This document shows, in pieces, positions 18,676 through 43,500 of a DNA stretch of 64,000 bases. Origin of the DNA: an uncultured Candidatus Saccharibacteria bacterium (GTDB taxonomy: Bacteria; Patescibacteriota; Minisyncoccia; Phycocordibacterales; PALSA-1337); assembly GCA_964542675.1 (NCBI GenBank), contig CAZIUH010000002.1, positions 98 through 64,097 on the forward strand, given 5' to 3'. The translations under genes and the position numbers were made by a program. Every line of letters starts with the position of its first letter. Positions within the stretch are counted from its first letter, which is position 1. Below the pieces are notes generated by a model. The model saw only the letters and a program-made list of their open reading frames with translations, made no database searches and was not told where the DNA came from.

Positions 18676-20220
18676 TCAATGGTATGAATATGAAAATTTT
18701 ATTTTTTTCTTTTTATCCTTTTTGATCTTTCTTGCTCGATTCATATTCATGGATTTTTCCTCCGGCGTTGGTTCTGGTCCCAAAAATAAGAAATGTAGCT
18801 TACGAATTTCGTCTTGTGGCATAATGGAAAATTCGGCATTATGATCAGCCGATAATTCCTTAAATTTCCTGTCATATTGAAGTGCTTCTTCATGCACTTG
18901 CAATGCCGTGTTATTCAATCCCAGAAGATGTAGCCCAGTCAAAGACCTGAGTCGAGACAATGCCACATAACCCATTCCTTTCTCGAATGATTGGGACAAA
19001 TCTATGTATGCCGCGTCCAAAGACATGCCTTGGCTTTTATGAATCGTGATCGCCCAAGCAAGACGAAGTGGATATTGTTCTATCTCCGCGAGTAATCTAT
19101 CATCGTCTTCAACGCGCCACTTTTCTTTTTCAACATGAATATTACCTCTAGTCGTACGCACGATAATTGATTCATAACCGCAATTTTCGACAATCCCGAG
19201 CGTGCCATTCACGTAACCTTTCTCATAATTATTCTTGACGAACATGACTCGCGCGCCGTGTTTCAAGCGCAAATTGGCAGGCGCCAAGCAACTTTTTTTC
19301 AAACCTTCAACAATCCGTTTATTGCCATGGCTATCCATTTGATATTCGAATACTCGTCCGCCGAGCTTAGCCAGCTCGCGCTCATTCTCGACATCTACAT
19401 TCAAATTGTGAGAATATAATTTCGTTGGTTCAATCCCAGAATTCGGGATCGCTCCTGAGCCGACGCTCCCCGTAGCGGACTTTAGCAAAGCGGAATGATT
19501 AGTGACCCCCGGAGGGAATGTGCCGGCGATACGAGTGGCTGACGACCGACTCCGAAGCAGATCAATAATATCCTTTGTGACTTTGGCGTCTCTAATAGCG
19601 TTCAAAATAGCCAAATATTGCGGGTCGTTTTGGCGGAATTGTTCTTCAAGATAACAAACTATAAATTGGGTTTCTTTCCAGGCTCTTGAATGATAAGCGA
19701 ACTCTGAACTTCCACTCTTATTATATTCATCACATTCGAAAAGTTGTCCATTATCGTCGCTTGGAGAATATGCAGACGCGCGCGAAATAGGCGGCAATTG
19801 AAAAAAATCTCCACAGACTATTATTTGTAAACCACCGAATGGTAAATGTGAATTGCGTACACGTTTCAAAACCCGATTTATCATATCCAATCGGTAATGA
19901 TGCAACATTGAAACTTCATCGATAATCAATACTCTTGCCGCCATTATTCTTTTTGCGGTATTCTCTTTTCCGGCAATTTCATCAATATCATATTCACTAA
20001 GCTTATCCTTTACCCCTATTCCCGCCCAGGAATGTATAGTTATGCCACCCATATGCGTTGCCGCTATACCTGTGGATGCCGTCACGCCAACAGGTATTCC
20101 GCGTTCACACAAGCAGGTCAAATATTCCCGCAAAACATGTGTCTTTCCGCTTCCGGCCGCGCCAGTTAGAAATACATTCGCCCCGGTTTTCAGAATCTTG
20201 AGAGCTTCAACTTGAGTCAT
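18676..20220 (-). CDS. PIF1/RecD-like ATP-dependent DNA helicase (AAA_30/Pif1 family)
   Basis: Walker A GAAGSGKTHVL, LIIDEVSM Walker B, QLPP, C-terminal SH3-like/HTH region, Lys-rich tail. Inserted between rplE and rpsZ. Confidence 0.8.
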   Translation of the reverse strand: MTQVEALKILKTGANVFLTGAAGSGKTHVLREYLTCLCERGIPVGVTASTGIAATHMGGITIHSWAGIGVKDKLSEYDIDEIAGKENTAKRIMAARVLIIDEVSMLHHYRLDMINRVLKRVRNSHLPFGGLQIIVCGDFFQLPPISRASAYSPSDDNGQLFECDEYNKSGSSEFAYHSRAWKETQFIVCYLEEQFRQNDPQYLAILNAIRDAKVTKDIIDLLRSRSSATRIAGTFPPGVTNHSALLKSATGSVGSGAIPNSGIEPTKLYSHNLNVDVENERELAKLGGRVFEYQMDSHGNKRIVEGLKKSCLAPANLRLKHGARVMFVKNNYEKGYVNGTLGIVENCGYESIIVRTTRGNIHVEKEKWRVEDDDRLLAEIEQYPLRLAWAITIHKSQGMSLDAAYIDLSQSFEKGMGYVALSRLRSLTGLHLLGLNNTALQVHEEALQYDRKFKELSADHNAEFSIMPQDEIRKLHFLFLGPEPTPEEKSMNMNRARKIKKDKKKKIKFSYSYH

Positions 20221-20322
20221 GGAAACATTATAGAGGAATATTCAAAAAAGACACATTGATGGGTTCGGTAAAACATGTTGATAAACAAAAACACGGATTG
20301 ATTCGTATTTTTTTATAATTTA

Positions 20323-20874
20323 TTATTTCTTCCCCTCCCTCTTTATCGGGAATCCCAAATGTTCCAGAAATGCCAGCGTGGAATTCTTGTCATGTGAGGT
20401 TGTAACGATGGTGATCGCCATGCCAAAAACGTCTTTCAAATCTTCATCGGAAGTTTCGGCAAAAATAGTATGTTCCTTGACGCCAATAGTGAAATTGCCC
20501 ATATCGTCTACAGCCGTGCGATTTAACCCGCGAAAATCCTTCGTGCGAGGAAGAGCGATATGGATCAAACGGTCAAGAAATTCACACATGCGCTTGCCAC
20601 GAAGAGTGACTTGATATCCGACAGGGTCGCCGATACGAGTCTTGAATGTGGCAATAGCTTTTTTTGTCGCTCTTATCGCGGGTTTTTGTCCGGTAATTCT
20701 GGCAAGACGCTCGGCAATGAGTTCAATTTTCTTTTTATCCTTCACGGATCCGAAACCATTGGAAACAACCACCTTTGTAAGCCGGGGCACCTGCATAGCA
20801 TTCGTAAGTCCCAGCTTCTCTTTCAAGGCTTTGAATGACTCTTTATTAAGTTCATAAATGGATTTGTATTTCAT
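20323..20874 (-). CDS. rplE: 50S ribosomal protein L5
   Basis: MKYKSIYELNKESFKALKEKLGLTNAMQVPRLTKVVVSNGFG. Confidence 0.9.
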   Translation of the reverse strand: MKYKSIYELNKESFKALKEKLGLTNAMQVPRLTKVVVSNGFGSVKDKKKIELIAERLARITGQKPAIRATKKAIATFKTRIGDPVGYQVTLRGKRMCEFLDRLIHIALPRTKDFRGLNRTAVDDMGNFTIGVKEHTIFAETSDEDLKDVFGMAITIVTTSHDKNSTLAFLEHLGFPIKREGKK

Positions 20875-20937
20875 ATAATTAAAATTGGATTTTATATCTT
20901 AAATATATCTTTCTTTTTGAGACTTGAAATTTAATTT

Positions 20938-21156
20938 TTAACTTATCTTTGCAACCTTACACGCGTATATTGGCATCGCTCTTTCGACTATTTGTCCTTT
21001 TGCCCCTTGTTTCTTGGGTCTTTCGGTTTTCTTTGTTATATTCACACCTTCCACTAGGACTTTTCCGAGAGCCGGAAATGCCTTGACAACTTTGCTTTTC
21101 TTACCTTTATCATCTCCTGCCAAGATTTTAACTGTATCTCCTTTTTTTATATGCAT
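20938..21156 (-). CDS. rplX: 50S ribosomal protein L24
   Basis: MHIKKGDTVKILAGDDKGKKSKVVKA. Confidence 0.88.
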   Translation of the reverse strand: MHIKKGDTVKILAGDDKGKKSKVVKAFPALGKVLVEGVNITKKTERPKKQGAKGQIVERAMPIYACKVAKIS

Positions 21157-21200
21157 GGTATTAAGTTAAAAGTGTAAAGTGCGCAAGGCACAAGTTGTGA

Positions 21201-21572
21201 TTAAACGATTTCAGCCGCCTTCGATGCTATGGTTTTGAATCCGGCATCTTGAACTTCTCTCGGAATAGGCCCGAAAATACGGCCCGCGAGAGGTTCTTTT
21301 TTGCCTTTTTCCAAGATGACAACGGCATTCCCATCGAAACGAATATATGAACCATCTTTTCTCCTCGTCGGTTTGACCTGACGAACAACTACCGCCTGAA
21401 GAACGTCTTTCTTCTTGACCGATTTCCTCGGCTCAGCTTTTTGTACAGAAAGAATGACCATGTCTCCGATTTCCGCGTATCGCTTTCTTGTGGCGCCAAG
21501 TACCTTGAATATGCGTCCGATTTTGGCTCCGGAATTGTCTGCGATATTTACGATTGTTCGGGGTTGTATCAT
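21201..21572 (-). CDS. rplN: 50S ribosomal protein L14
   Basis: MIQPRTIVNIADNSGAK... Confidence 0.92.
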   Translation of the reverse strand: MIQPRTIVNIADNSGAKIGRIFKVLGATRKRYAEIGDMVILSVQKAEPRKSVKKKDVLQAVVVRQVKPTRRKDGSYIRFDGNAVVILEKGKKEPLAGRIFGPIPREVQDAGFKTIASKAAEIV

Positions 21573-21579
21573 AATAGTT

Positions 21580-21648
21580 GAATTATGAATTACGAATATA
21601 CATTCTACTTCATTGTTTTATATTCATAATTCGTAATTCTTAATTCAC
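21580..21648. repeat. GAATTAN heptamer-array inverted pair (rpsQ–rplN spacer)
   Basis: GAATTATGAATTACGAATA ... TTCATAATTCGTAATTCTTAATTC. Confidence 0.7.
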
Positions 21649-21902
21649 GCGATGACTCGAAACGCCTTCCTCTTTGAAATCGGCTTACAGGCTTCTACCG
21701 TTGCCTTGTCGCCTAATATTTTCGTATTACCAATGTCTGAAGCCATGATCTTCGTTTTCCTGTTCATGTATTTGTGATACTTCGGATGCTTCACATATCG
21801 TCTGATTTCTACAACAACAGTATCTTTCATCTTGTCGGAAATGACCACACCTTTGAATGTCTGGCGATTTTTCTTATTTTCCTTTGTTTTTATTATTTCC
21901 AT
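21645..21902 (-). CDS. rpsQ: 30S ribosomal protein S17
   Basis: KGVVISDKMKDTVVVEIRRYVKHPKYHKY. Confidence 0.88.
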   Translation of the reverse strand: MEIIKTKENKKNRQTFKGVVISDKMKDTVVVEIRRYVKHPKYHKYMNRKTKIMASDIGNTKILGDKATVEACKPISKRKAFRVIA

Positions 21903-21967
21903 GAATTTCTGATATTACTTGAAATACGTTGATTTGTCTAGTTTAATCTGACTTTTCTTGCCATTGA

Positions 21968-22174
21968 TTATTTATCTTCCGTATTCATCGCGTTTACCGC
22001 TGTCATTATCCTGGCAATATCTTTTTTTACCGCTTTACCCTCCTTTACGTTCTTGGTCTTCGCCCCCGCTCCGCCGAAGCAAAATACGCGCAAAATTTCC
22101 CGTTTTTCACCGAGCATTTTGGCAAGATCTGCGTGCGTCTTATTCTTTATGTTCTTCATTTTTATTGCTTTCAT
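21968..22174 (-). CDS. rpmC: 50S ribosomal protein L29
   Basis: MKAIKMKNIKNKTHADLAKMLGEKREILRV... Start taken at the internal Met; the upstream ORF extension overlaps a hairpin. Confidence 0.75.
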   Translation of the reverse strand: MKAIKMKNIKNKTHADLAKMLGEKREILRVFCFGGAGAKTKNVKEGKAVKKDIARIMTAVNAMNTEDK

Positions 22175-22282
22175 GATATAAAAAAGCTCATCCGAGCTAT
22201 GAAAAGATATTATCAAGTAAGTTTAATCAAGTCAATAGAAGTCAATAGAAGTTGTTATTTGTACTCATGGTATAATGAGCGT

Positions 22283-23476
22283 ATGAAGACTATGCCACCA
22301 TTGATATATAGTTCACAGACTCAAATAAATCTGTTCTCAACAGATCCAGTTGAGACTTTGAACCTAAAAAATCCGTATTTTAGTTCTCATCTAATTACTT
22401 ACATCGGAAACAAGCGACGCTTGCTTCCTTTTCTCCACAAAAGTTTTTTGAAAGTTCGTGAGAAAATCGGCACACGTAAACTTGTCATTCTTGATGGATT
22501 CGTTGGAAGTGGTGCCACGGCACGATTACTGAAATCCTTCGCAAGTGAGCTTCATGTGAATGATCTAGAAGACTACTCTGAAACCATAAATCGCGCTTAT
22601 CTTGCTAATAGAACAAAGATTAATCTAGATGAACTCGAGAAAAATATAAACTGGTTAAACAAAAATAAATTACCAATAAATAACACATACAAACCTGGGT
22701 TTATCGAGAGAAATTATGCGCCAAAAGATGATAAAAACATTATGCCTGGAGAAAGAGTCTTTTATACAAGAAATAATGCACGGATAATTGATTATGTTCG
22801 TCAACTGATTGAGGAAAAAATCCCAACAGAATATAAACATCTCTGTCTCGCTTCATTATTGGTGAAAGCATCTGTAAATACAAATACGTCTGGAGTTTTT
22901 AAAGGTTTTCATAAAAAAGATGGTAATGGGCATTTTGGAGGACATAGTGAAAATGCGTTGTCACGGATTAAGAGAGAAATAACGCTCGACACGCCAATAT
23001 TCTCTGAGTTTGAATGCCCTGTAACCGTTCATAAACGAGACATAAATGAACTAATAACGGACAGCAAGCTACCAATATTTGATTTGGTTTATTATGATCC
23101 CCCATATAATCAACATCCTTATGGATCAAACTATTTCATGTTAAACCTAATCAATAGTGGAAAAGAGTGTGAGATTCAAGATGGAGTTAGTGGCATAATA
23201 AAACATTGGAATAAATCAGCATATAATAAAAAAAATGATGCTGAGGATGCTATGGAAAGATTATTACGGGATACACGCGCAAGATTTGTTGTAATTTCAT
23301 ACAATGATGAAGGTATAATACCTGTGAGTAATTTCAGAAATATATTGTCAAAATATGGAAAGATTGAATTAATGGAACAAGAATATAACACCTATCGAGG
23401 TTCAAGAAATTTAAATAATAGAAATATAAAAGTTAAAGAACTTCTCTGGATATTAGAGAAAACAAATGCTAACTAA
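22283..23476 (+). CDS. site-specific DNA N6-adenine methyltransferase (D12/Dam-like, alpha class)
   Basis: FxGxG-type motif I (LDGFVGSGA) and DPPY catalytic motif (VYYDPPYNQ). TATAAT 8 nt upstream of the chosen ATG. Convergent with, and overlapping, the EcoRI-like restriction endonuclease gene. Confidence 0.75.
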   Translation: MKTMPPLIYSSQTQINLFSTDPVETLNLKNPYFSSHLITYIGNKRRLLPFLHKSFLKVREKIGTRKLVILDGFVGSGATARLLKSFASELHVNDLEDYSETINRAYLANRTKINLDELEKNINWLNKNKLPINNTYKPGFIERNYAPKDDKNIMPGERVFYTRNNARIIDYVRQLIEEKIPTEYKHLCLASLLVKASVNTNTSGVFKGFHKKDGNGHFGGHSENALSRIKREITLDTPIFSEFECPVTVHKRDINELITDSKLPIFDLVYYDPPYNQHPYGSNYFMLNLINSGKECEIQDGVSGIIKHWNKSAYNKKNDAEDAMERLLRDTRARFVVISYNDEGIIPVSNFRNILSKYGKIELMEQEYNTYRGSRNLNNRNIKVKELLWILEKTNAN

Positions 23477-24086
23477 TCGGAAAATAATGTTTGATTGCCA
23501 TTTCCGCCACATCAGTAATAATATTCAGCATTTCATTAATTTTCCAATCTTTATGCCGGAAAAACATGGAAACTGGTTCAAACGGTAAATTATTTTTTTG
23601 TATAAAAAGCTTTTTCAGAGGGAAAAAATCATTCATTGTCACAACTCGATCACGAATTGTTGATTCATCCTTGAAATCATCACCACTTCCAAAACATACA
23701 AAAGGAATGACTTCCTCTTTTTTGAAGATTGCTCGAATCCCAATCAGATTTTTTCCGAGCCGTTCAACGGCATTTCCTCTTGCTTGTTTTGGTAATCCTT
23801 CATCTTTTCGTTTATCATTAGTCCCTTGCCTTTTTACTTCAGCAATAAGAATAAGCCTCCGACTTCCATTTTTGTCAGTAGCATAGAGAAACCCTCCATC
23901 TGGTTTAATATAACTCCTTTTCAAGACCTGAGAAAACTCCTGGGAATATTCTGGATATTCCAGACGTAAGTCATTGATTATTGTTGAAAGTAATAATTGT
24001 TTTTTATGTTCAAAAATCAGTTGTGGATATTTTTCACCTAAACGCTTCATAATTTTTTTAACAACTATCATAATGTCACTATCCAT
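23469..24086 (-). CDS. Type II restriction endonuclease, EcoRI/RsrI/MunI family
   Basis: KPDGG...LILIAEVKRQG (PD-ExK) and ARGNAVERLGKN closely parallel EcoRI KPDGG...LVAEAKHQG...AAGNAIERSHKN. Confidence 0.75.
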   Translation of the reverse strand: MDSDIMIVVKKIMKRLGEKYPQLIFEHKKQLLLSTIINDLRLEYPEYSQEFSQVLKRSYIKPDGGFLYATDKNGSRRLILIAEVKRQGTNDKRKDEGLPKQARGNAVERLGKNLIGIRAIFKKEEVIPFVCFGSGDDFKDESTIRDRVVTMNDFFPLKKLFIQKNNLPFEPVSMFFRHKDWKINEMLNIITDVAEMAIKHYFPIS

Positions 24087-24168
24087 TTTTTTGACATAGA
24101 GTTTTTAATACTATGTTGATTCTTATTTTTTCTCAATAAATCAGAATTTGCCATGTTATATAGAAATA

Positions 24169-24594
24169 TTACATTCTAGCAACTATCCTTGTCTTTAGTG
24201 GCAACTTTGTTCCCGCTTTGCGGAGCGCTTCTTCGGCAATTTTGGGCTCAACACCGTCAATTTCAAAAACGATTCTACCCGGTTTGACCTCGGCGATGAA
24301 ACCAACGATGTCGCCTTTACCTTTACCCATTTTCACTTCGGCTGGTTTCTGAGTATACGGATGATCTGGAAAAACGCGAATCCAGACTTTACCTGTTTTC
24401 CCCGCCTTGTGCATAGCCGCCTTGCGCGCCGCTTCGATCTGATTTGACGTCACACGAGCGTATTCGAGTGCCTTCAAACCAAATGAACCAAAAGCAATGC
24501 TAATACCGCGAGTATCGGCATGAATAGCCTCCTTCAAAGGATTTTGTCTCATTGTGAACCATTTGCGATGCTTTACTTTTTTGGGAATTAACAT
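24169..24594 (-). CDS. rplP: 50S ribosomal protein L16
   Basis: MLIPKKVKHRKWF... Confidence 0.92.
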   Translation of the reverse strand: MLIPKKVKHRKWFTMRQNPLKEAIHADTRGISIAFGSFGLKALEYARVTSNQIEAARKAAMHKAGKTGKVWIRVFPDHPYTQKPAEVKMGKGKGDIVGFIAEVKPGRIVFEIDGVEPKIAEEALRKAGTKLPLKTRIVARM

Positions 24595-24606
24595 GGTAGT
24601 AATTTA

Positions 24607-24701
24607 GAATGTAAAAATCAAAAAATGACAAATAAAAGCGTTAAAATCCGAAACGATTATATTTTGTTTTTTACATTGTCATTTTTCATTTTGATTTTTT
24701 T
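24607..24701. repeat. second intergenic inverted-repeat family (ACATTGTCATTTTTCATTTTGATTTTT type), rpsC–rplP spacer
   Basis: GAATGTAAAAATCAAAAAATGACAAATAAA ... TTTTTTACATTGTCATTTTTCATTTTGATTTTT. Confidence 0.65.
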
Positions 24702-25380
24702 ATATTTTACCCGTAGTTTGATCTTTCTTAAAGACTTCTCCTTTGTAAATCCAAACTTTGATGCCTATATCTCCGTATGTCATATGAGCTTTTTCGCGAG
24801 CGAAATCTATATCCGCGCGCAGTGTCTGGAGTGGCACACGACCACGCTTGGCTTCTTCAGATCGCGCGATTTCAGCTCCACCTAGACGACCGCCGAGGAA
24901 GATGCGTACGCCTTTTACTTCCTTATTGGCCATGACTTTTTCTATCATTTGTTTCAACACACGGCGATACGGCAAACGTTTCTCCAATGATTCGGCAACC
25001 ATCATTCCGACAATCGCGGCGTTGGATTCGGGACTGCGGATTTCTTCTATGTCTAGCTTGAATTCTTGTCCACCCAAATCTATTTTATTTTTGCGAAGTA
25101 AAGACAGGATTTTCTCGCGAAGTTTCGTCGCTCCATCACCACTTTTTCCAATGATCATTCCAGGCCTGGAAGATTTCACGATAACGCGAACAAATTTCCT
25201 CGTTCTTTCTATATCAATTCCACCGATAAAAAACAGGCGCAACTCTTCACGCAAAAATTCACGAATAAGAAGATCGGTTTTTAGCGCTGTTCTGTATCCC
25301 CTGTCCATGCCAAACCAGCGACTTTTCCAGTCTCTAATGATTCCTATCCTATGAGAATATGGGTGTACAGTGTGTGACAT
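24700..25380 (-). CDS. rpsC: 30S ribosomal protein S3
   Basis: KH domain and C-terminal S3 domain, 226 aa. Confidence 0.92.
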   Translation of the reverse strand: MSHTVHPYSHRIGIIRDWKSRWFGMDRGYRTALKTDLLIREFLREELRLFFIGGIDIERTRKFVRVIVKSSRPGMIIGKSGDGATKLREKILSLLRKNKIDLGGQEFKLDIEEIRSPESNAAIVGMMVAESLEKRLPYRRVLKQMIEKVMANKEVKGVRIFLGGRLGGAEIARSEEAKRGRVPLQTLRADIDFAREKAHMTYGDIGIKVWIYKGEVFKKDQTTGKI

Positions 25381-25387
25381 TTTTATA

Positions 25388-25473
25388 ATTGAATTGAATT
25401 ATAAATTAATTATGGATAAACTCATATCTTCTTGTTCTTTTTTCTTAATTCGTAATTCTTAATTCGTAATTCT
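25388..25473. repeat. GAATTAN heptamer-array inverted pair (rplV 3' end–rpsC spacer), partly coding
   Basis: TTGAATTGAATTATAAATTAATTATGG ... CTTAATTCGTAATTCTTAATTCGTAATTC. The latter encodes the L22 C-terminal tail. Confidence 0.65.
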
Positions 25474-25808
25474 TTTGTTTCCTTGGGCGCAAGCACAATG
25501 TTAACATGACTTGTCCTCTTCTTGATCGGATGCGCCGAACCTCTAGATACCGGCATACTGCGCCTCAAGACGAATCCCTGATCGACGCGAATTTCCTTTA
25601 CATAAAGACCGGTATTTTCTATCTTGAAATTATTCTTGGCGTTGGCGATGGCGGAATCGAGGAGATCACCGAGCGGATGTCTCGCCTTCTTATCGGCATG
25701 CTCCAAAATGAGTTTAGCGTCAATAACATTCTTGCCGCGAATCATATCTGCCACAATGCGAACCTTGCGAGGAGATATTCTATAATTTTTGAGCGAGGCG
25801 ATGATCAT
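25422..25808 (-). CDS. rplV: 50S ribosomal protein L22
   Basis: ISPRKVRIVADMIRGKNV... The C-terminal tail (KELRIKNYELRKKNKKI) is encoded by the heptamer repeat element. Confidence 0.88.
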   Translation of the reverse strand: MIIASLKNYRISPRKVRIVADMIRGKNVIDAKLILEHADKKARHPLGDLLDSAIANAKNNFKIENTGLYVKEIRVDQGFVLRRSMPVSRGSAHPIKKRTSHVNIVLAPKETKELRIKNYELRKKNKKI

Positions 25809-25817
25809 GGCTGTGAA

Positions 25818-26168
25818 TTATTTCTTTGCGGCGGCGGTTGTCGCGGCTTCTTTGGCAGATTTGGCGGCTGTAACCTCGGCTTCTTTGGCTTTCATCTCTA
25901 TTTCTTTTTGCATCTTGCCTCCATGACGCACAAACTTGCGCGTAAGCGCAAACTCACCGAGGCGGTGTCCAACCATATCCTCGGTTACTAGTACATCTAT
26001 ATGAATTTTGCCGTTATGAACCCCGAATGTAAAACCGACCATTTCGGGTGAAATTTGGCTTCTTCGCGCCCATGTCTTAATAACCCCCGATGTGGCGGGC
26101 TTTTTTCCGGAGATTTTCTTCAAGATCCTCTCCTCAACATATGGCCCTTTTTTTAGTGATCGTGACAT
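25818..26168 (-). CDS. rpsS: 30S ribosomal protein S19 (Ala/Lys-rich C-terminal extension)
   Basis: [13 protein letters not shown]...[24 protein letters not shown]. Confidence 0.9.
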
Positions 26169-26426
26169 GAATTATTGCGAGCGAAAGTAATTATTCAAAT
26201 AATAGAATAAAAGAAGCTCTGCCGAGCTCATAAATCATACTAACAGAGCCATATCTTGAAGTCAAGGAAAGTTGTCTGACCGGATATGTACACTATCGTA
26301 ACATTTATAATATGAAGAAGATGAGATATGTCGGTAACGCCCCTGATATGATTAAATTCATTAAAGGTCAAGGTATTACCAATCTAACTCGTCTTCTTTA
26401 GTCCAGAAATTCAATTATTTGACCAG

Positions 26427-27401
26427 ATGCGCTATAATACGAATATGACGATATTTAGTCGTAAAGTAGTCAGAGAAAACATGATAAAGGTATGGGACAA
26501 ACACCGCGCTGTTACCTGTATCCTCACAGTCATCGTCCTCGCCATTATATTCGGGGCTTGGTACGGTCAAAATAATATCAATATTTTAACGAAAAATGTA
26601 AACGATCTTTCTTTGCAAATCACTTCCTTAGAAAACAAATTATCATCAACAACCGTGGGACTTCAAGAAAATATCGCAAAGACGCATGATTCCCTTTCCA
26701 ACGAACTCAATCAAGAAAAGCAAAATTCCGCGGCGATAGAACAAAAACTTGGTAGTTATCAACAACAAGTTACTTCGGTCACCGGCACCATAGACACTTT
26801 GCAGAAACTTAGCAAAACTGATCCACAACTATTACAGAAATATTCCAAAGTTTTCTTTTTGAATGAATACTACTCTCCAGCCAGACTGACCGAGATACCG
26901 GGCGATTATGCGTACAGCGATACAAGAATATTGAAATTTGAGACCGATGTATGGCCACATTTGAAACAAATGATAGATGACGCTAGAAATAACGGCATCA
27001 TTATATATGTTTATTCGGCGTTCCGTTCATTCAACGAACAGAACGCCATTAAAGGCCAATACAAAATCACCTACGGCGCCGGTAGTGCCAATTCATTCTC
27101 CGCGGATCAAGGATATTCAGAACATCAGCTCGGTACGACTGTAGATCTCATCACAACCGGTCTAGGAGGTTCTCTAGACGGCTTTGACGGCACAAAGGCT
27201 TACGCATGGCTAACTGACAACGCATACCGCTACGGCTTCATCCTTTCATACCCGAAAGACAATTCATTCTATGTCTATGAACCGTGGCATTGGCGTTTCG
27301 TCGGAGTGAAACTAGCTACCGATCTTCATAATCAAAACAAAAACTTCTATGATCTAGATCAGAGGAAGATCGATGAATATCTGGTCAATTTCTTCGAATA
27401 A
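26427..27401 (+). CDS. peptidase M15 family D,D-carboxypeptidase (VanY-like) with N-terminal TM and coiled coil
   Basis: YSAFRSFNEQ and GYSEHQLGTTVDL motifs of M15B/VanY-type carboxypeptidases. Confidence 0.7.
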   Translation: MRYNTNMTIFSRKVVRENMIKVWDKHRAVTCILTVIVLAIIFGAWYGQNNINILTKNVNDLSLQITSLENKLSSTTVGLQENIAKTHDSLSNELNQEKQNSAAIEQKLGSYQQQVTSVTGTIDTLQKLSKTDPQLLQKYSKVFFLNEYYSPARLTEIPGDYAYSDTRILKFETDVWPHLKQMIDDARNNGIIIYVYSAFRSFNEQNAIKGQYKITYGAGSANSFSADQGYSEHQLGTTVDLITTGLGGSLDGFDGTKAYAWLTDNAYRYGFILSYPKDNSFYVYEPWHWRFVGVKLATDLHNQNKNFYDLDQRKIDEYLVNFFE

Positions 27402-27480
27402 TTATATTCCCCGCATAACATTCGGTCAAAACACAAAAAAACCACTGTTCAAAAATGAACCGTGGTTTTTTTGCTTGGAT

Positions 27481-27738
27481 TTATGACAAATGCTTAGAGA
27501 CAAGTTTAGTCATTTCGAACATATTGACCACATCTTTACCGCCGAATACTTTTTTAAGATTCTCGTCGGCATTGATATTACGCTTATTCTTCGGATCCTG
27601 AAGATTCTTCTCCTTGATATAGACCCAAAGTTTCTTCACGACTTCAGACCTGGGCATCGGACCGACACCGACAACGACTGCTAAGTCCGCACTGATATTA
27701 AGCGGCTTCATAAACGCAGAATTTGATTTTGTTGGCAT
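27481..27738 (-). CDS. SWIB/MDM2 domain protein
   Basis: PMPRSEVVKKLWVYIKEKNLQDPKNKRNINADENLKKVFGGKDVVNMFEMTKLVSKHL matches the SWIB consensus. Confidence 0.8.
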   Translation of the reverse strand: MPTKSNSAFMKPLNISADLAVVVGVGPMPRSEVVKKLWVYIKEKNLQDPKNKRNINADENLKKVFGGKDVVNMFEMTKLVSKHLS

Positions 27739-27811
27739 ATGTTTCTATTATGTCCTAATAAGACTTACATAATAGCACATTCAAGGAAATATTAGGAGAT
27801 GGCTAAAGACA

Positions 27812-37196: not shown

Positions 37197-38441
37197 TTAT
37201 CCGACAATCGGTTTGACAACCAGCATCGGGCAATTCTTTTCGGATACTGTGTCTGGGGCTTGGCTACCATTTCTCTTAACAAGCAATGCCCCGACAATGA
37301 GCACAATTCCGGAGACGATCCATGCAAACGATATACCGCAATATTGCGCTATCGCCCCACTTACGAGAAGCCCGAAAACTCCCCCAATATGAGGCGCAAT
37401 GGCGCAGAATGATGTTATCGTCGCCCTTTCAGCCGAAGGAATCCTCTTTTGCAAGAAACTGTCTTTCAAAGGAGGACACATACCACGCGTCATTTCATGT
37501 AAGAGGAATAGAGTTAGAATGATCGGCAAGGATGAAAACATCACGGTTAGAATAACAAATATTCCCGTAATGATCTGAATTCTGAGGATTAATGACTTTT
37601 CTCTTCCAGTACTTTTCATGCGCAACACCAGAAATGAACCGATGGCAACAAAAGCCATGATACCAGCGTATATGAATCCGAAACTGGATTCATTAACTCC
37701 ATAACTCTTGAAGAATGGCTGCCAATACATATTCAAGGCTTGCACCGCGAATATTTGCATGAATGTTATAAGCAGAATGAATCGAACCGCTTTATCATTC
37801 ATGCCATAATGAATACTTGTTTTTACCGTATCCCTCATTGAAACCATACCTTTTTTCCATGAGAGTTTTTGTCTCTTGAAATAGTTTTCCTTCATGGTTA
37901 TTTGTGCGGCAATGGTCACTACGAGAAGCCCAGTACCACCGCAATACCAAGGCCATGTGGCATTGAATGTGTAGAGATATGATCCTGCGATTGCTCCGAG
38001 ACCGCCACCGATCTGACAAAAGAGATTTTCGCGAGCGAATATCTTCGTCAGATCACCTGTGTAGTTCGTATGTTTCAGACTATCAACGAACCAAGCCTGG
38101 AACGCTCCACTTCGAAATGTAACACCAATAGCACAGATGACTTCTGCCAGAATAAATCCTGACAAAGAATCTGAGCTACCATAGACGAACATACTGAGTG
38201 ACATAAGCGCGCAAGAAAAAACGAATGCCGTTTTTCTCCCAAATATGTCAGCGAACGCCCCTGTCGGTATTTCACAGGCGAAGAGAGTTAGAAAAAAGCA
38301 TGTGTTTACCATATTCACCTCGAATAGGCTCAAGCCGTTTTTCATAAGGAATGTCACATATATAGCAGACTGAAGAGACAATCCGATAGCACTGAAAAGT
38401 GCCGACAACACGATATACTGACCAATAATTTTCTTTTGCAT
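37197..38441 (-). CDS. MFS transporter (12 TM)
   Basis: 414 aa with the pattern of 12 hydrophobic helices and MFS-like loop motifs. Inserted between rplD and rplC. Confidence 0.7.
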   Translation of the reverse strand: MQKKIIGQYIVLSALFSAIGLSLQSAIYVTFLMKNGLSLFEVNMVNTCFFLTLFACEIPTGAFADIFGRKTAFVFSCALMSLSMFVYGSSDSLSGFILAEVICAIGVTFRSGAFQAWFVDSLKHTNYTGDLTKIFARENLFCQIGGGLGAIAGSYLYTFNATWPWYCGGTGLLVVTIAAQITMKENYFKRQKLSWKKGMVSMRDTVKTSIHYGMNDKAVRFILLITFMQIFAVQALNMYWQPFFKSYGVNESSFGFIYAGIMAFVAIGSFLVLRMKSTGREKSLILRIQIITGIFVILTVMFSSLPIILTLFLLHEMTRGMCPPLKDSFLQKRIPSAERATITSFCAIAPHIGGVFGLLVSGAIAQYCGISFAWIVSGIVLIVGALLVKRNGSQAPDTVSEKNCPMLVVKPIVG

Positions 38442-41487: not shown

Positions 41488-43500
41488 TTATTGCGGTTTT
41501 TGGAGATATTCTTTGAAGGCGTCCCAGATATTGGCTGTTGGTATTGTACTTACTGTTGTAGCCGGTTGTACCGTGACTTGCGATGAAACACCAACAGCAT
41601 AGTTTGGATTATCAGACAAATATTCATAGAAGTTCGGTACGATATTTTGAGCCGAAAACGTTGTATTATCGATTCGGAAAACAACGCTTCGTACTGTGGC
41701 TGAATTGAATTTTGTCATTTTGTTGCATAGAGATGTATTGCCACCTATATCACCGATCCATACAGCCGAGACTCCGGACGGACAACTCAAATAAAGCGCT
41801 GATGACACTGCGTTGCTATGTGTAGTGAAGTTCAGGGTTACAGTACTACCAGAATTAACCATTGAAACAGAAGGGGTGATAGAGAGTGAGCCAGTAGGAG
41901 TACTTGAGGTTACGGTAAAGATATGTGTGTTACTATTCTTTCCTATAGTCAGATCAGAATCATTAACCACACTCAGTCCATATGATCCAATCGAAACTGA
42001 ACCTGGAATAGCAAAAGAGATTGTTGAACCGTTACTTGAAGAGGCTAGATAAGTGTTTCCGGCAATTAGAATCCGATTATATGAACCAAAACCTGAACCC
42101 GTAATCGAAACCATGCTTCCTACTGGACCTGATGTTGGATAAATAGAAGTTATAGATGATTGGGGTAAATCTGATATTTTAGGATTAATTAGAGTTACTA
42201 TATGTCCTGCACTTGTTTGACCCGATGAGTTCGTAACATAGACCGCAGGGAATCCAGATGGTAATGATGGAACAATAAATCTTGCAGTTGTACCATATGT
42301 TTCTGTTACCGTAACAGGGTTTGTTGAACCGCCAACTTTTACTGACAACATTCCACTAAGCCCAGTACCATAAATGGTTGCCCAATTATTTGCATGGATA
42401 GTATTTTCAGGATCGCCAGCTGATTGGACATTCGAAATAGTTGGTCTAATTGAAGTTACATCTGAAGCCGTTGTCTGTGTCGTTACCTGTGTTGGCGTAA
42501 TACTAGAAGCAGGAATTATACCTACCGCTTGCGTGCCATCGGTAAATTCCACATAAATCTTTCCACCACTGAACCTAGAACTTTCTGGTTGGCCATATAG
42601 TTTGAGATTGTATGTGCCAGTACCCGTCATAATATTCTGATTATAAACAGTATTCACTTGTGAACCATCACGAGTGACTACAAGTGGATATGGTGTCTCT
42701 TTGTAACCATAAAGATCTGCTCCATCATTCAAGTAACGGGAATCCCCTGTTGACCATACTTCACCAGCCAAATTGTGCTTGACTGTAATACGAGAAATTG
42801 TTTTTTGTGAAGGAAGTGTTACGGTTGCATACCATTGCCAATCATTCGGATTTGAATTTACATTGGCGGCATTTGGACTAAACTGACCCCAAGCACCAGC
42901 TTTGTCTTCTCCAGCATAATAGAGATACGCGGATACAGTAGTGCCGGGAGCTTGGGACGTATCGGTTTTGATATTGGTGCTGGTATTGGTATTAGCATTT
43001 GTACCTGTCAATGAAGATGCTGTACAAACCGTATTGAACTTCGCACGCGTCAGAGGTCCAAAGTATGATTCGGTAATACCATTCGCATTTTGATATCGTT
43101 GTAATGCCGTTACCGTTTGAGAACCATAATATCCCTTCGTGGCTTGTCCAGAAGATATTGCTGGAATATCATAACCGAGTTTCATAAGCCATGATTGGAG
43201 AGTTTCTACATCTATTCCCATGCTTCCTTGTCGTAGATTTGTTGTATATTGATAGCATTTATTACTATTTGTGGCTGTTGTGACTGTCGTATCAGTTGTC
43301 GCTTTACAAATATATCCAGTAGGACAATTTGATATTTGTGCGACGGGAGTACATATATACCCTTCCGGACACGCGGGAAGCACAGTACATATGTAACCTG
43401 CAGGACAAGTAACGGCCTCCACATTCACTGGACTCGACACTAGTACCACGAACGCGAAGATCGCAATCGGTACAAGTGACGAAATTAATATTTTTTTCAT
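41488..43500 (-). CDS. secreted protein: signal peptide, three CPxGYIC(T/K) Cys repeats, peptidoglycan-binding (PG_binding_1-like) domain, Thr/Ser-rich Ig-like C-terminal region
   Basis: MKKILISSLVPIAIFAFVVLV signal. CPAGYICT, CPEGYICT, CPTGYICK repeats. LQSWLMKLGYDI...TVTALQRYQNANGI. 670 aa. Inserted between fusA and tuf. Confidence 0.6.
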   Translation of the reverse strand: MKKILISSLVPIAIFAFVVLVSSPVNVEAVTCPAGYICTVLPACPEGYICTPVAQISNCPTGYICKATTDTTVTTATNSNKCYQYTTNLRQGSMGIDVETLQSWLMKLGYDIPAISSGQATKGYYGSQTVTALQRYQNANGITESYFGPLTRAKFNTVCTASSLTGTNANTNTSTNIKTDTSQAPGTTVSAYLYYAGEDKAGAWGQFSPNAANVNSNPNDWQWYATVTLPSQKTISRITVKHNLAGEVWSTGDSRYLNDGADLYGYKETPYPLVVTRDGSQVNTVYNQNIMTGTGTYNLKLYGQPESSRFSGGKIYVEFTDGTQAVGIIPASSITPTQVTTQTTASDVTSIRPTISNVQSAGDPENTIHANNWATIYGTGLSGMLSVKVGGSTNPVTVTETYGTTARFIVPSLPSGFPAVYVTNSSGQTSAGHIVTLINPKISDLPQSSITSIYPTSGPVGSMVSITGSGFGSYNRILIAGNTYLASSSNGSTISFAIPGSVSIGSYGLSVVNDSDLTIGKNSNTHIFTVTSSTPTGSLSITPSVSMVNSGSTVTLNFTTHSNAVSSALYLSCPSGVSAVWIGDIGGNTSLCNKMTKFNSATVRSVVFRIDNTTFSAQNIVPNFYEYLSDNPNYAVGVSSQVTVQPATTVSTIPTANIWDAFKEYLQKPQ

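Follow-up and report, generated by a model that had tools for sequence, protein, structure and literature searches.

A predicted EcoRI-family restriction–modification cassette, with a frameshifted endonuclease gene, inserted between rplP and rpmC in a ribosomal protein gene cluster of a Patescibacteria bacterium

The stretch of DNA analyzed here (the window, 64,000 nucleotides (nt) in length) belongs to an ultra-small Patescibacteria bacterium and carries a ribosomal protein (r-protein) gene cluster on its minus strand, within which a restriction–modification (R-M) gene pair, comprising a restriction endonuclease (REase, R) and a DNA methyltransferase (MTase, M), lies between rplP and rpmC (Table 1). 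On that strand the genes run rpsS (25818-26168), rplV, rpsC, rplP, the REase/MTase insert, rpmC, rpsQ, rplN, rplX, and rplE. The two R-M genes are convergent and share 8 nt at their 3' ends (23469-23476), with 14 nt separating rplP from R and 108 nt separating M from rpmC; no further open reading frame (ORF) that could encode a controller protein (C-protein, a small helix-turn-helix gene) fits either spacer. An original prediction for this DNA had wedged such a pair between these two r-protein genes, and the flanks do match Pfam L16 and L29. Its convergent DPPY N6-adenine methyltransferase partner with an 8-nt overlap was also borne out, with a match to PF02086. The start that it gave for the whole module, 22133, was that of a mechanically called GTG ORF overrunning rpmC; the real start of M is the ATG at 22283, which yields a protein of 397 amino acids (aa), like its homologues.

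Table 1. Features of the rplP-rpmC region and the upstream module, in window coordinates.
Feature	Position	Strand	Basis or remark
rplP (L16), last host gene ahead of the insert	24169..24594	-	Pfam Ribosomal_L16, E = 5.9e-41; 70-90% identical to L16 of 80 Paceibacteria genomes
REase gene, detached 5' part: N-terminal arm MANSDLLRKNKNQHSIKNSMSKK, then out of frame to a stop	24068..24154	-	Three-frame translation; in frame in L006, L008, L089, L091, L092
A7 run, TC A AAA AAA TGG, 1-nt deletion relative to TCAAAAAAGATGG of L006	24086..24092	-	A7 in 5/5 contigs L001-L005
REase core ORF, EcoRI family, 205 aa	23469..24086	-	Pfam PF02963; PDB EcoRI; PADLOC REase_II; ortholog model TM 0.72
D12-class N6-adenine DNA methyltransferase (predicted), 397 aa, FVGSG ... 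DPPY	22283..23476	+	Pfam PF02086; PADLOC MTase_II PDLC03257
Extended -10 box TGgTATAAT, putative leaderless M promoter	22268..22276	+	Sequence; same box in L006, L008, L091
10-bp tandem duplication, AGTCAATAGA x2.3; duplicates the TTGACT -35 box on the minus strand	22230..22252		Single copy in L006
Outward promoter TTGACT-N17-TAATAT, TG-extended, predicted rpmC restart	22207..22235	-	Conserved in L006; enriched pattern in the window
AGCTC-GGAT-GAGCT palindrome/hairpin plus T5 run	22180..22198	-	2 nt past the predicted transcription start, 5 nt ahead of the rpmC ATG
rpmC (L29), first host gene past the insert; true start ATGAAAGCAAT at 22174	21968..22174	-	Pfam L29; start as in the empty-site loci L009 and L011
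Second promoter-plus-palindrome module, upstream of rpsS	26216..26265	-	Upstream of rpsS in most relatives

The 205-aa ORF of the R gene matches the Pfam EcoRI family PF02963 (E = 3.7e-16, 59.4 bits against a cutoff of 22) and the PADLOC REase_II model (E = 2.8e-19), and EcoRI is its sole significant sequence match in the PDB (phmmer, E = 5.6e-13, or 5.5e-21 with a 36-sequence family profile). Its motifs KPDGG (aa 61), AEVKRQG (aa 82), and ARGNAVER (aa 102) align with EcoRI D91, E111/K113, and A138-R145, such that the catalytic residues D63, E83, and K85 fall on EcoRI D91, E111, and K113, and all three are invariant in 36 aligned homologues (alignment A1). In the same alignment the G, N, A, E, and R of G104-N-A-V-E-R109, which corresponds to EcoRI G140-R145, do not vary either. 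An AlphaFold2 (AF2) model of the ortholog P0002, which is 82% identical to the window REase and stands in for it in fold modelling, has a predicted local distance difference test score (pLDDT) of 83 and matches EcoRI by Foldseek with E = 2e-14 and a template modelling (TM) score of 0.72 over 232 columns. Pfam, the PDB alignment, PADLOC, and the ortholog fold thus agree on the EcoRI-type PD...E-x-K core that had been read in this ORF, with its catalytic residues retained. MunI (1D02) was absent among the significant phmmer, profile, and Foldseek matches of the REase family, and an NCBIfam scan of both the R and the M proteins gave no match. A terminator-like hairpin at 23759-23771 on the plus strand was rejected, as it sits in codons of the conserved NAVERLG motif.

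The M protein has PF02086 as its sole Pfam match (E = 1.2e-16, 61.7 bits, cutoff 22) and aligns over its full length with PADLOC MTase_II PDLC03257 (E = 6.6e-105). FVGSG and DPPY are read in it and are invariant in the alignment of MTase homologues (alignment A2). M is a D12-class enzyme, predicted to be an N6-methyladenine (m6A) methyltransferase. Its homologues number at least 7989, with about 70-77% identity among the top matches. A PDB sequence search with M alone (phmmer) and with an 18-member profile found no solved relative, and an AF2 model of M from a shallow alignment reached a pLDDT of only 61, its Foldseek matches being generic class-I methyltransferases at E>0.01 and uninformative. 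The "EcoRI/RsrI module" of the original prediction stands as far as the endonuclease family is concerned, but the pair is not an orthologous system, as M matches PF02086 only and the genes are convergent. M does not resemble M.EcoRI, and the genes are ordered differently from those of EcoRI; the window therefore holds an EcoRI-family enzyme, but the system to which it belongs is a different one. In some close MTase homologues (P0143, P0202, and P0240, with about 72-75% identity), the methyltransferase comes as a fusion with LexA-like DNA-binding and peptidase S24 domains (PF01726, PF00717), which hints at SOS-type autoregulated variants of the cassette.

The position of the cassette was compared with that in 80 relatives, which are Paceibacteria/Taylorbacteria-like genomes from an L16 scan of species-representative genomes. 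The rplP-rpmC spacer measures 11-117 nt in about 70 of the 80, and 15 nt in the closest two, the empty-site relatives L009 and L011; none of the 80 carries the R-M system of the window. Because the spacer is short in these relatives and the cassette is AT-richer than its surroundings (GC fraction 0.31-0.35 versus 0.39-0.46 in the flanks), the comparison shows the R-M cassette to have been inserted into a Paceibacteria genome, in an rplP-rpmC spacer of roughly 15 nt. A chimeric contig, in which an R-M island had been joined to the ribosomal operon by the assembler, would also account for the lower GC of the cassette in what is metagenome-derived sequence. However, the identical arrangement occurs in six contigs from five samples processed with different pipelines, it recurs at about 80% nt identity in an independent Joint Genome Institute (JGI) metagenome, and the junctions are tight and coding-consistent, such that an assembly artefact can practically be dismissed.

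The locus from that JGI metagenome, the diverged ortholog L006, carries the same cassette at the same site, with 82% (R) and 84% (M) aa identity and about 80% nt identity, the latter like that of the flanking r-protein genes. Synonymous divergence (dS) between the window and L006 is at least 1 in the cassette, again like the flanking r-protein genes, and the ratio of nonsynonymous to synonymous divergence (dN/dS) is 0.08 for R and 0.04 for M, whose reading frame is intact; both genes are under purifying selection. By these comparisons the insert would either have been kept under purifying selection on both genes since the lineages split or have been exchanged between lineages. No recombination tract, in the form of an identity gradient towards the junction, was seen, and the search for target-site duplications or terminal inverted repeats around the cassette returned chance-level matches only.

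The same junction has received other DNA. Insertions longer than 500 nt are found at rplP|rpmC in 6 of 77 relatives, with one more cut by a contig end, and at none of the other six junctions from rpsS to rplE. The cargo includes DUF3800 (three times), Fic, a nucleotidyltransferase with SocA/Panacea, a VOC-type protein, a bPH membrane protein, and a 975-aa surface protein, at L024 (6420-8622), L028 (6420-9627), L037 (2489-4473), L038 (4694-6056), L040 (6420-8375), L050 (700-1709), and L073 (6423-7700). L037 and L040 have right-end sequence in common and different cargo. At their left junctions the eight cargo insertions have no sequence in common and so give no evidence of an att site. The genome comparison shows rplP|rpmC to be a recurrent insertion point, that is, a site-specific hotspot for unrelated cargo.

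The str/S10/spc cluster of the window is also broken at four further places, on or around the minus-strand cluster. A Pif1 helicase lies between rplE and rpsN (18676-20220), and Pif1 after rplE recurs in many relatives. A block of about 8.7 kb between rplB and rpsS (26169-34921) holds a tRNA-binding protein, a DEAD helicase, HlyD-like/ABC/MacB, a histidine kinase, SWIB, and VanY. An MFS transporter lies between rplC and rplD (37197-38441), and a 670-aa peptidoglycan (PG)-binding protein between fusA and tuf (41488-43500).

Beyond this site, at least 773 REase homologues were found, mostly in Patescibacteria, and in other genomes the convergent R/M pair sits between unrelated housekeeping genes; an adjacent convergent pair is present in 43 of 85 further loci. 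More distant REase homologues (41-52% identity; L140-L173) have M then R, in tandem on the same strand, and gene order has evidently been rearranged within the REase/MTase family. A second r-protein context is provided by L174 (2187-3993), where a 69%-related cassette has inserted independently between rplE and rpsN, with R intact and co-oriented with the operon. The copy in L137 (3739-5612) is near-identical to that of L174, except for a +1 frameshift in its R, located in an A run immediately ahead of the catalytic E-x-K. From this distribution, the cassette is a mobile unit.

At its M-proximal end the insert carries a promoter-and-palindrome module, which consists of TTGACT, a 17-nt spacer usually ending in GCTCTGT (a TG-extended -10), TAnnAT, 7-8 nt, (A/C)GCTC-N4-GAGC, and a T-rich stretch. 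The promoter pattern TTGACW-N16-18-TANNAT occurs four times in the 64 kb against 1.28 expected, each time intergenic and on the operon strand, namely upstream of rpsN (after Pif1), of rpmC (after the R-M genes), of rpsS (after the block of about 8.7 kb), and of the MFS gene inserted after rplC. The rpmC and rpsS sites share GCTCGGNNGAGC, present in two copies against 0.13 expected. The module is typical of r-protein operons in the clade. Across the compared sequences the full module has 75 copies (for example, at 4494 in L009 and at 1441 and 4454 in L025), all on the r-protein gene strand: two in the window, five at the rpmC-proximal ends of cargo in relatives, two each in L006 and L137/L174, and most of the remainder either upstream of rpsS or some 3 kb beyond that point, at a second upstream site that we infer to be rpsJ. 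It closes all eight cargo-bearing rplP|rpmC gaps, the window included, and none of the short empty ones; it is absent beside R-M cassettes outside r-protein clusters and present at the rplE|rpsN insertion (L137/L174). The module could be a promoter combined with an RNA 5' hairpin, an attenuator, or a DNA operator; an Rfam scan of 20000-27000 with E up to 0.1 found no RNA family.

This module also accounts for a tandem repeat that had been proposed as an operator. The repeat had been described as an 11-mer present twice at 22232-22253, when it is actually AGTCAATAGA with a period of 10 and 2.3 copies at 22230-22252. The ortholog cassette in L006 has a single copy, and it is only in the window that the TTGACT -35 box of the minus-strand rpmC promoter has been duplicated, over 10 bp, to give the repeat, which leaves little of the operator proposal.

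The R gene is on the same strand as the r-protein operon and starts 14 nt (window) or 11 nt (L006) past the rplP stop, which leaves no room for a promoter of its own. In all six gene-called contexts R is co-oriented with its upstream gene; a crude ORF-based test of the same co-orientation (18/26) was noisy, mislabelled a known case, and was not used. A candidate R promoter, TTGAGA-N17-TAGTAT at 24136..24108(-), was rejected because it lies inside the conserved N-terminal coding segment. For M, a TGnTATAAT or TGnGATAAT box stands exactly 6 nt before the ATG in four of six homologous cassettes (window, L006, L008, and L091), and because this -10 box is so close to the start codon, the M transcript is probably leaderless. 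The TATAAT box and short leader had been noticed before, and both hold up, in that the box is at 22271-22276 and a leaderless transcript is plausible; the distance is 6 nt rather than 8 nt, and the box is TG-extended.

These features suggest the following layout. A promoter upstream of rpsS, for which the rpsS-upstream module is the probable candidate, would drive rpsS-rplV-rpsC-rplP-R with R as the last gene of the unit, and this transcript would read on antisense through M. M, in turn, would have a leaderless mRNA, antisense to R, that starts from the extended -10 promoter of M itself, and at the M-proximal end of the insert the TTGACT-N17-TAATAT module would re-initiate transcription of rpmC and the genes that follow. 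Readthrough from rplP antisense to M had been proposed earlier, and its geometry is right (about 1.2 kb), but it is not specific to ribosomal genes, as the convergent R/M arrangement is built into the cassette (43 pairs). What that proposal missed is that, judging from its position on the same strand 14 nt after rplP, R itself is directly coupled to operon transcription.

As to specificity, the recognition site is inferred to have an AATT core. EcoRI N141, A142, and R145 contact the inner AATT (PMC4081073), and the conserved G-N-A-x-E-R motif supports such a core. The residue before GNA, which occupies the position of EcoRI A139, is R in the window REase and K, L, Q, or M in relatives. GAATTC had been said not to be depleted, and in the window it is indeed not clearly so, with 37 sites observed and 48 expected (observed/expected ratio (O/E), 0.76). 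Its O/E is 0.79 in six cassette-bearing loci versus 1.08 in the 80 relatives without the cassette, the corresponding values for AATT are 0.85 and 0.94, and TAATTA is depleted to a similar extent as GAATTC, for which the effect is weak.

Taken as a whole, the original prediction amounts to an EcoRI/RsrI isoschizomer system (GAATTC) where transcription running on from rplP, antisense to M, would tie the amount of methyltransferase to ribosome production, and where the repeat would serve as an operator. In its favour are the antisense layout, which does exist, EcoRI as the nearest relative of known structure, a GAATTC frequency slightly lower in loci with the cassette than in those without, and the antisense control documented for EcoRI (PMC3141266, PMC3874152). 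Nevertheless, this combination is very unlikely, considering that the repeat is missing from the ortholog in tandem form and coincides with a -35 box, that M is D12-class and not M.EcoRI-like, that convergent R and M are intrinsic to the cassette in all contexts, that the residue at the EcoRI A139 position varies, and that the GAATTC depletion is weak and matched by that of TAATTA.

The 205-aa ORF does contain the EcoRI core, but it is not the whole gene, as a conserved arm has been split off by a 1-nt deletion. REase homologues are about 226 aa long and open with a strongly conserved arm, MANSDFLRKNKNQHSIKNxxSKK, in which S4, F6, L7, R8, N10, N12, Q13, H14, K17, and N18 are at least 90% conserved (alignment A1). 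In the window the conserved 23-aa arm MANSDLLRKNKNQHSIKNSMSKK is encoded from the ATG at 24154 in a different frame from the core. The A run reads TCAAAAAAATGG in the window versus TCAAAAAAGATGG in L006, a difference of one deleted nucleotide that puts arm and core out of frame with each other, and each of the five contigs with the window REase (L001-L005) has the A7 allele. L006, in the same genomic context, is in frame at this site (AAAAAAG), as is the arm in every homologue checked, including "203/205-aa" database entries in which an internal Met was called as the start. That Met, which directly follows the arm (position 24 of P0002, and Met1 of the 205-aa ORF at 24084-24086), is present in at least 90% of homologues and is often called as the start. 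In the P0002 model the arm is disordered, and the truncation clips the first five residues of a helix spanning 19-42.

Most likely, then, as far as can be read from the gene itself, the window R lacks its arm unless the frame is restored, and the locus consists of a methylase and an attenuated or inactive nuclease. It would now act mainly as a methyltransferase, with the endonuclease reduced to the 205-aa form that lacks the arm and to rare products of slippage. Measured against the history of the insert, the frameshift must have arisen recently.

An alternative is that the 205-aa protein made from the internal Met is fully functional, the arm being dispensable or the short form a natural isoform. 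This would fit with the near-invariance of M24, where gene callers often place the start (the 203-aa entries), and with a core ORF that is intact, has a dN/dS of 0.08, and keeps every catalytic and recognition motif. Yet the arm is encoded in frame upstream in every "203/205-aa" entry checked, such that no natural arm-less gene was found, and the truncation removes ten residues of at least 90% conservation together with the start of a helix. Furthermore, EcoRI truncated at its N-terminus reportedly binds DNA without cleaving it. We consider full activity unlikely, and the attenuated or inactive nuclease remains the preferred reading.

The lesion might also be a device rather than a defect, that is, a throttle in which low amounts of full-length R are made when the ribosome shifts frame by -1 at A_AAA_AAA, or when RNA polymerase slips at A7, to keep the dose of a toxic enzyme low on a strong r-protein transcript. 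The upstream frame at the lesion does present an A_AAA_AAA heptamer of the X_XXY_YYZ type, and by sequence reading a -1 slip would restore the ...SKKMDSD... of the ortholog; R lies 14 nt behind rplP without a promoter of its own; and in L137, a second r-protein-embedded cassette, R is again frameshifted in a homopolymer while the near-identical L174 is intact. However, homopolymer indels are the commonest form of gene death, and no significant frameshift-stimulating structure was found downstream of A7 (z = -0.6), the hairpin of L006 and L174 being weaker in the window. In addition, L006 is in frame in the same context and needs no throttle, and the L137 frameshift lies elsewhere, near the catalytic region, and resembles decay. 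A throttle is therefore very improbable, and loss of frame with consequent attenuation is the reading retained here.

Overall, we regard as likely a Type IIP cassette, composed of an EcoRI-fold R of about 226 aa and a convergent D12-class M, inserted at rplP-rpmC, with the expression layout and the attenuated R as proposed above. Several points weigh against this reading or parts of it. By r-protein identity the window is slightly nearer to L009 and L011, which lack the cassette, than to L006, and this is compatible with vertical inheritance and loss as well as with lateral transfer into the same site. Promoters and transcription units have been assigned from consensus matches plus conservation. 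The fold of the hairpin upstream of rpmC and its pairing with the start codon were not significant as RNA (z = -0.8 and -1.0), only the 4-bp core of the palindrome is conserved, and its outer pair shows no covariation; the palindrome may thus be a DNA operator rather than an RNA element. The five contigs with the A7 allele come from related samples, so that the frameshift is real in that population but may vary elsewhere, and the 205-aa form, which starts at the nearly invariant M24, might be a natural active isoform. Finally, palindrome statistics for the window and six cassette loci against the 80 relatives gave a mild, non-specific AATT-related depletion and did not single out a recognition sequence.

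A bolder reading of the same observations is that of an "operon-anchored" selfish element, which would use the one permissive S10/spc junction, borrow r-protein transcription for R, carry or recruit a restart promoter, throttle R through A_AAA_AAA, and exploit a cargo-exchange site made by the module. In that case the essential downstream genes would depend on the insert end, only precise excision would be viable, and the promoter-GCTC-N4-GAGC module would make rplP|rpmC a cargo-exchange site in Paceibacteria. We regard this reading as quite unlikely in its entirety. A literature search for R-M insertions in r-protein operons or in ribosomal clusters of the candidate phyla radiation (CPR) returned nothing relevant.

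The R-M system itself is ordinary, belonging to a populous and already annotated family, and it is its genomic location that is unusual. NCBI already uses the name "EcoRI family type II restriction endonuclease" for homologues, and both genes are recognised by PADLOC, so the enzymes as such add little. On the other hand, the S10/spc gene order is among the most conserved in bacteria, yet rplP|rpmC repeatedly takes up foreign cargo, toxin-antitoxin-like genes and membrane proteins included, in this Paceibacteria clade, which offers a concrete picture of how streamlined genomes may tolerate insertions in essential operons by means of a promoter-plus-palindrome restart. Here, a selfish R-M element appears to ride on a highly expressed essential unit and to have been maintained there for a long time (dS at least 1). 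In addition, the EcoRI-fold family of compact, 226-aa enzymes, which has hundreds of members in Patescibacteria, may be a source of new AATT-core specificities.

Among known enzymes, EcoRI and RsrI (PF02963; PDB 1ERI, 1CKQ) resemble the window family in fold (TM 0.72), in P-D...E-x-K, and in G-N-A-x-E-R, and the basic, disordered N-terminal arm of EcoRI is shared by intact members of the window family. There are also significant differences. EcoRI, at 277 aa, is about 50 aa longer than the 226-aa enzymes of the window family, identity is about 20-23%, and the similarity fades past EcoRI residue ~178. Its partner MTase is of another family, and R lies upstream of M (PMC3141266), whereas R and M are convergent in the window and the window copy of R is frameshifted.

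The D12-class (Dam-like) MTases of PF02086 are like M in their motif order of an N-terminal Y-x-G-N-K, FxGxG, a long middle part, and DPPY, although M is too distant from Dam, T4 Dam, and DpnM for detection in the PDB by phmmer or profile. MunI (CAATTG) and MluCI (AATT) are AATT-core relatives of EcoRI, of small size like the window REase; MunI has about 202 aa. At the position equivalent to the Arg before GNA, MunI has R115, which reads the outer G. In the window REase an Arg likewise precedes GNA, but this residue is variable in the family and is no fixed determinant of specificity. For EcoRI, MunI, and MluCI, a possible "mosaicism" has been noted (PMC4081073).

With regard to regulation, antisense or reverse-promoter control is documented in the EcoRI system, and R-M systems are known as selfish, toxin-antitoxin-like elements (PMC3141266, PMC3874152). 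As in the EcoRI system, opposing transcription across R and M is available to the window cassette, and the predicted strong promoter of M would favour methylation before restriction. Unlike in EcoRI, the opposing transcripts would come from whole convergent genes, and R is apparently placed on a host r-protein promoter.

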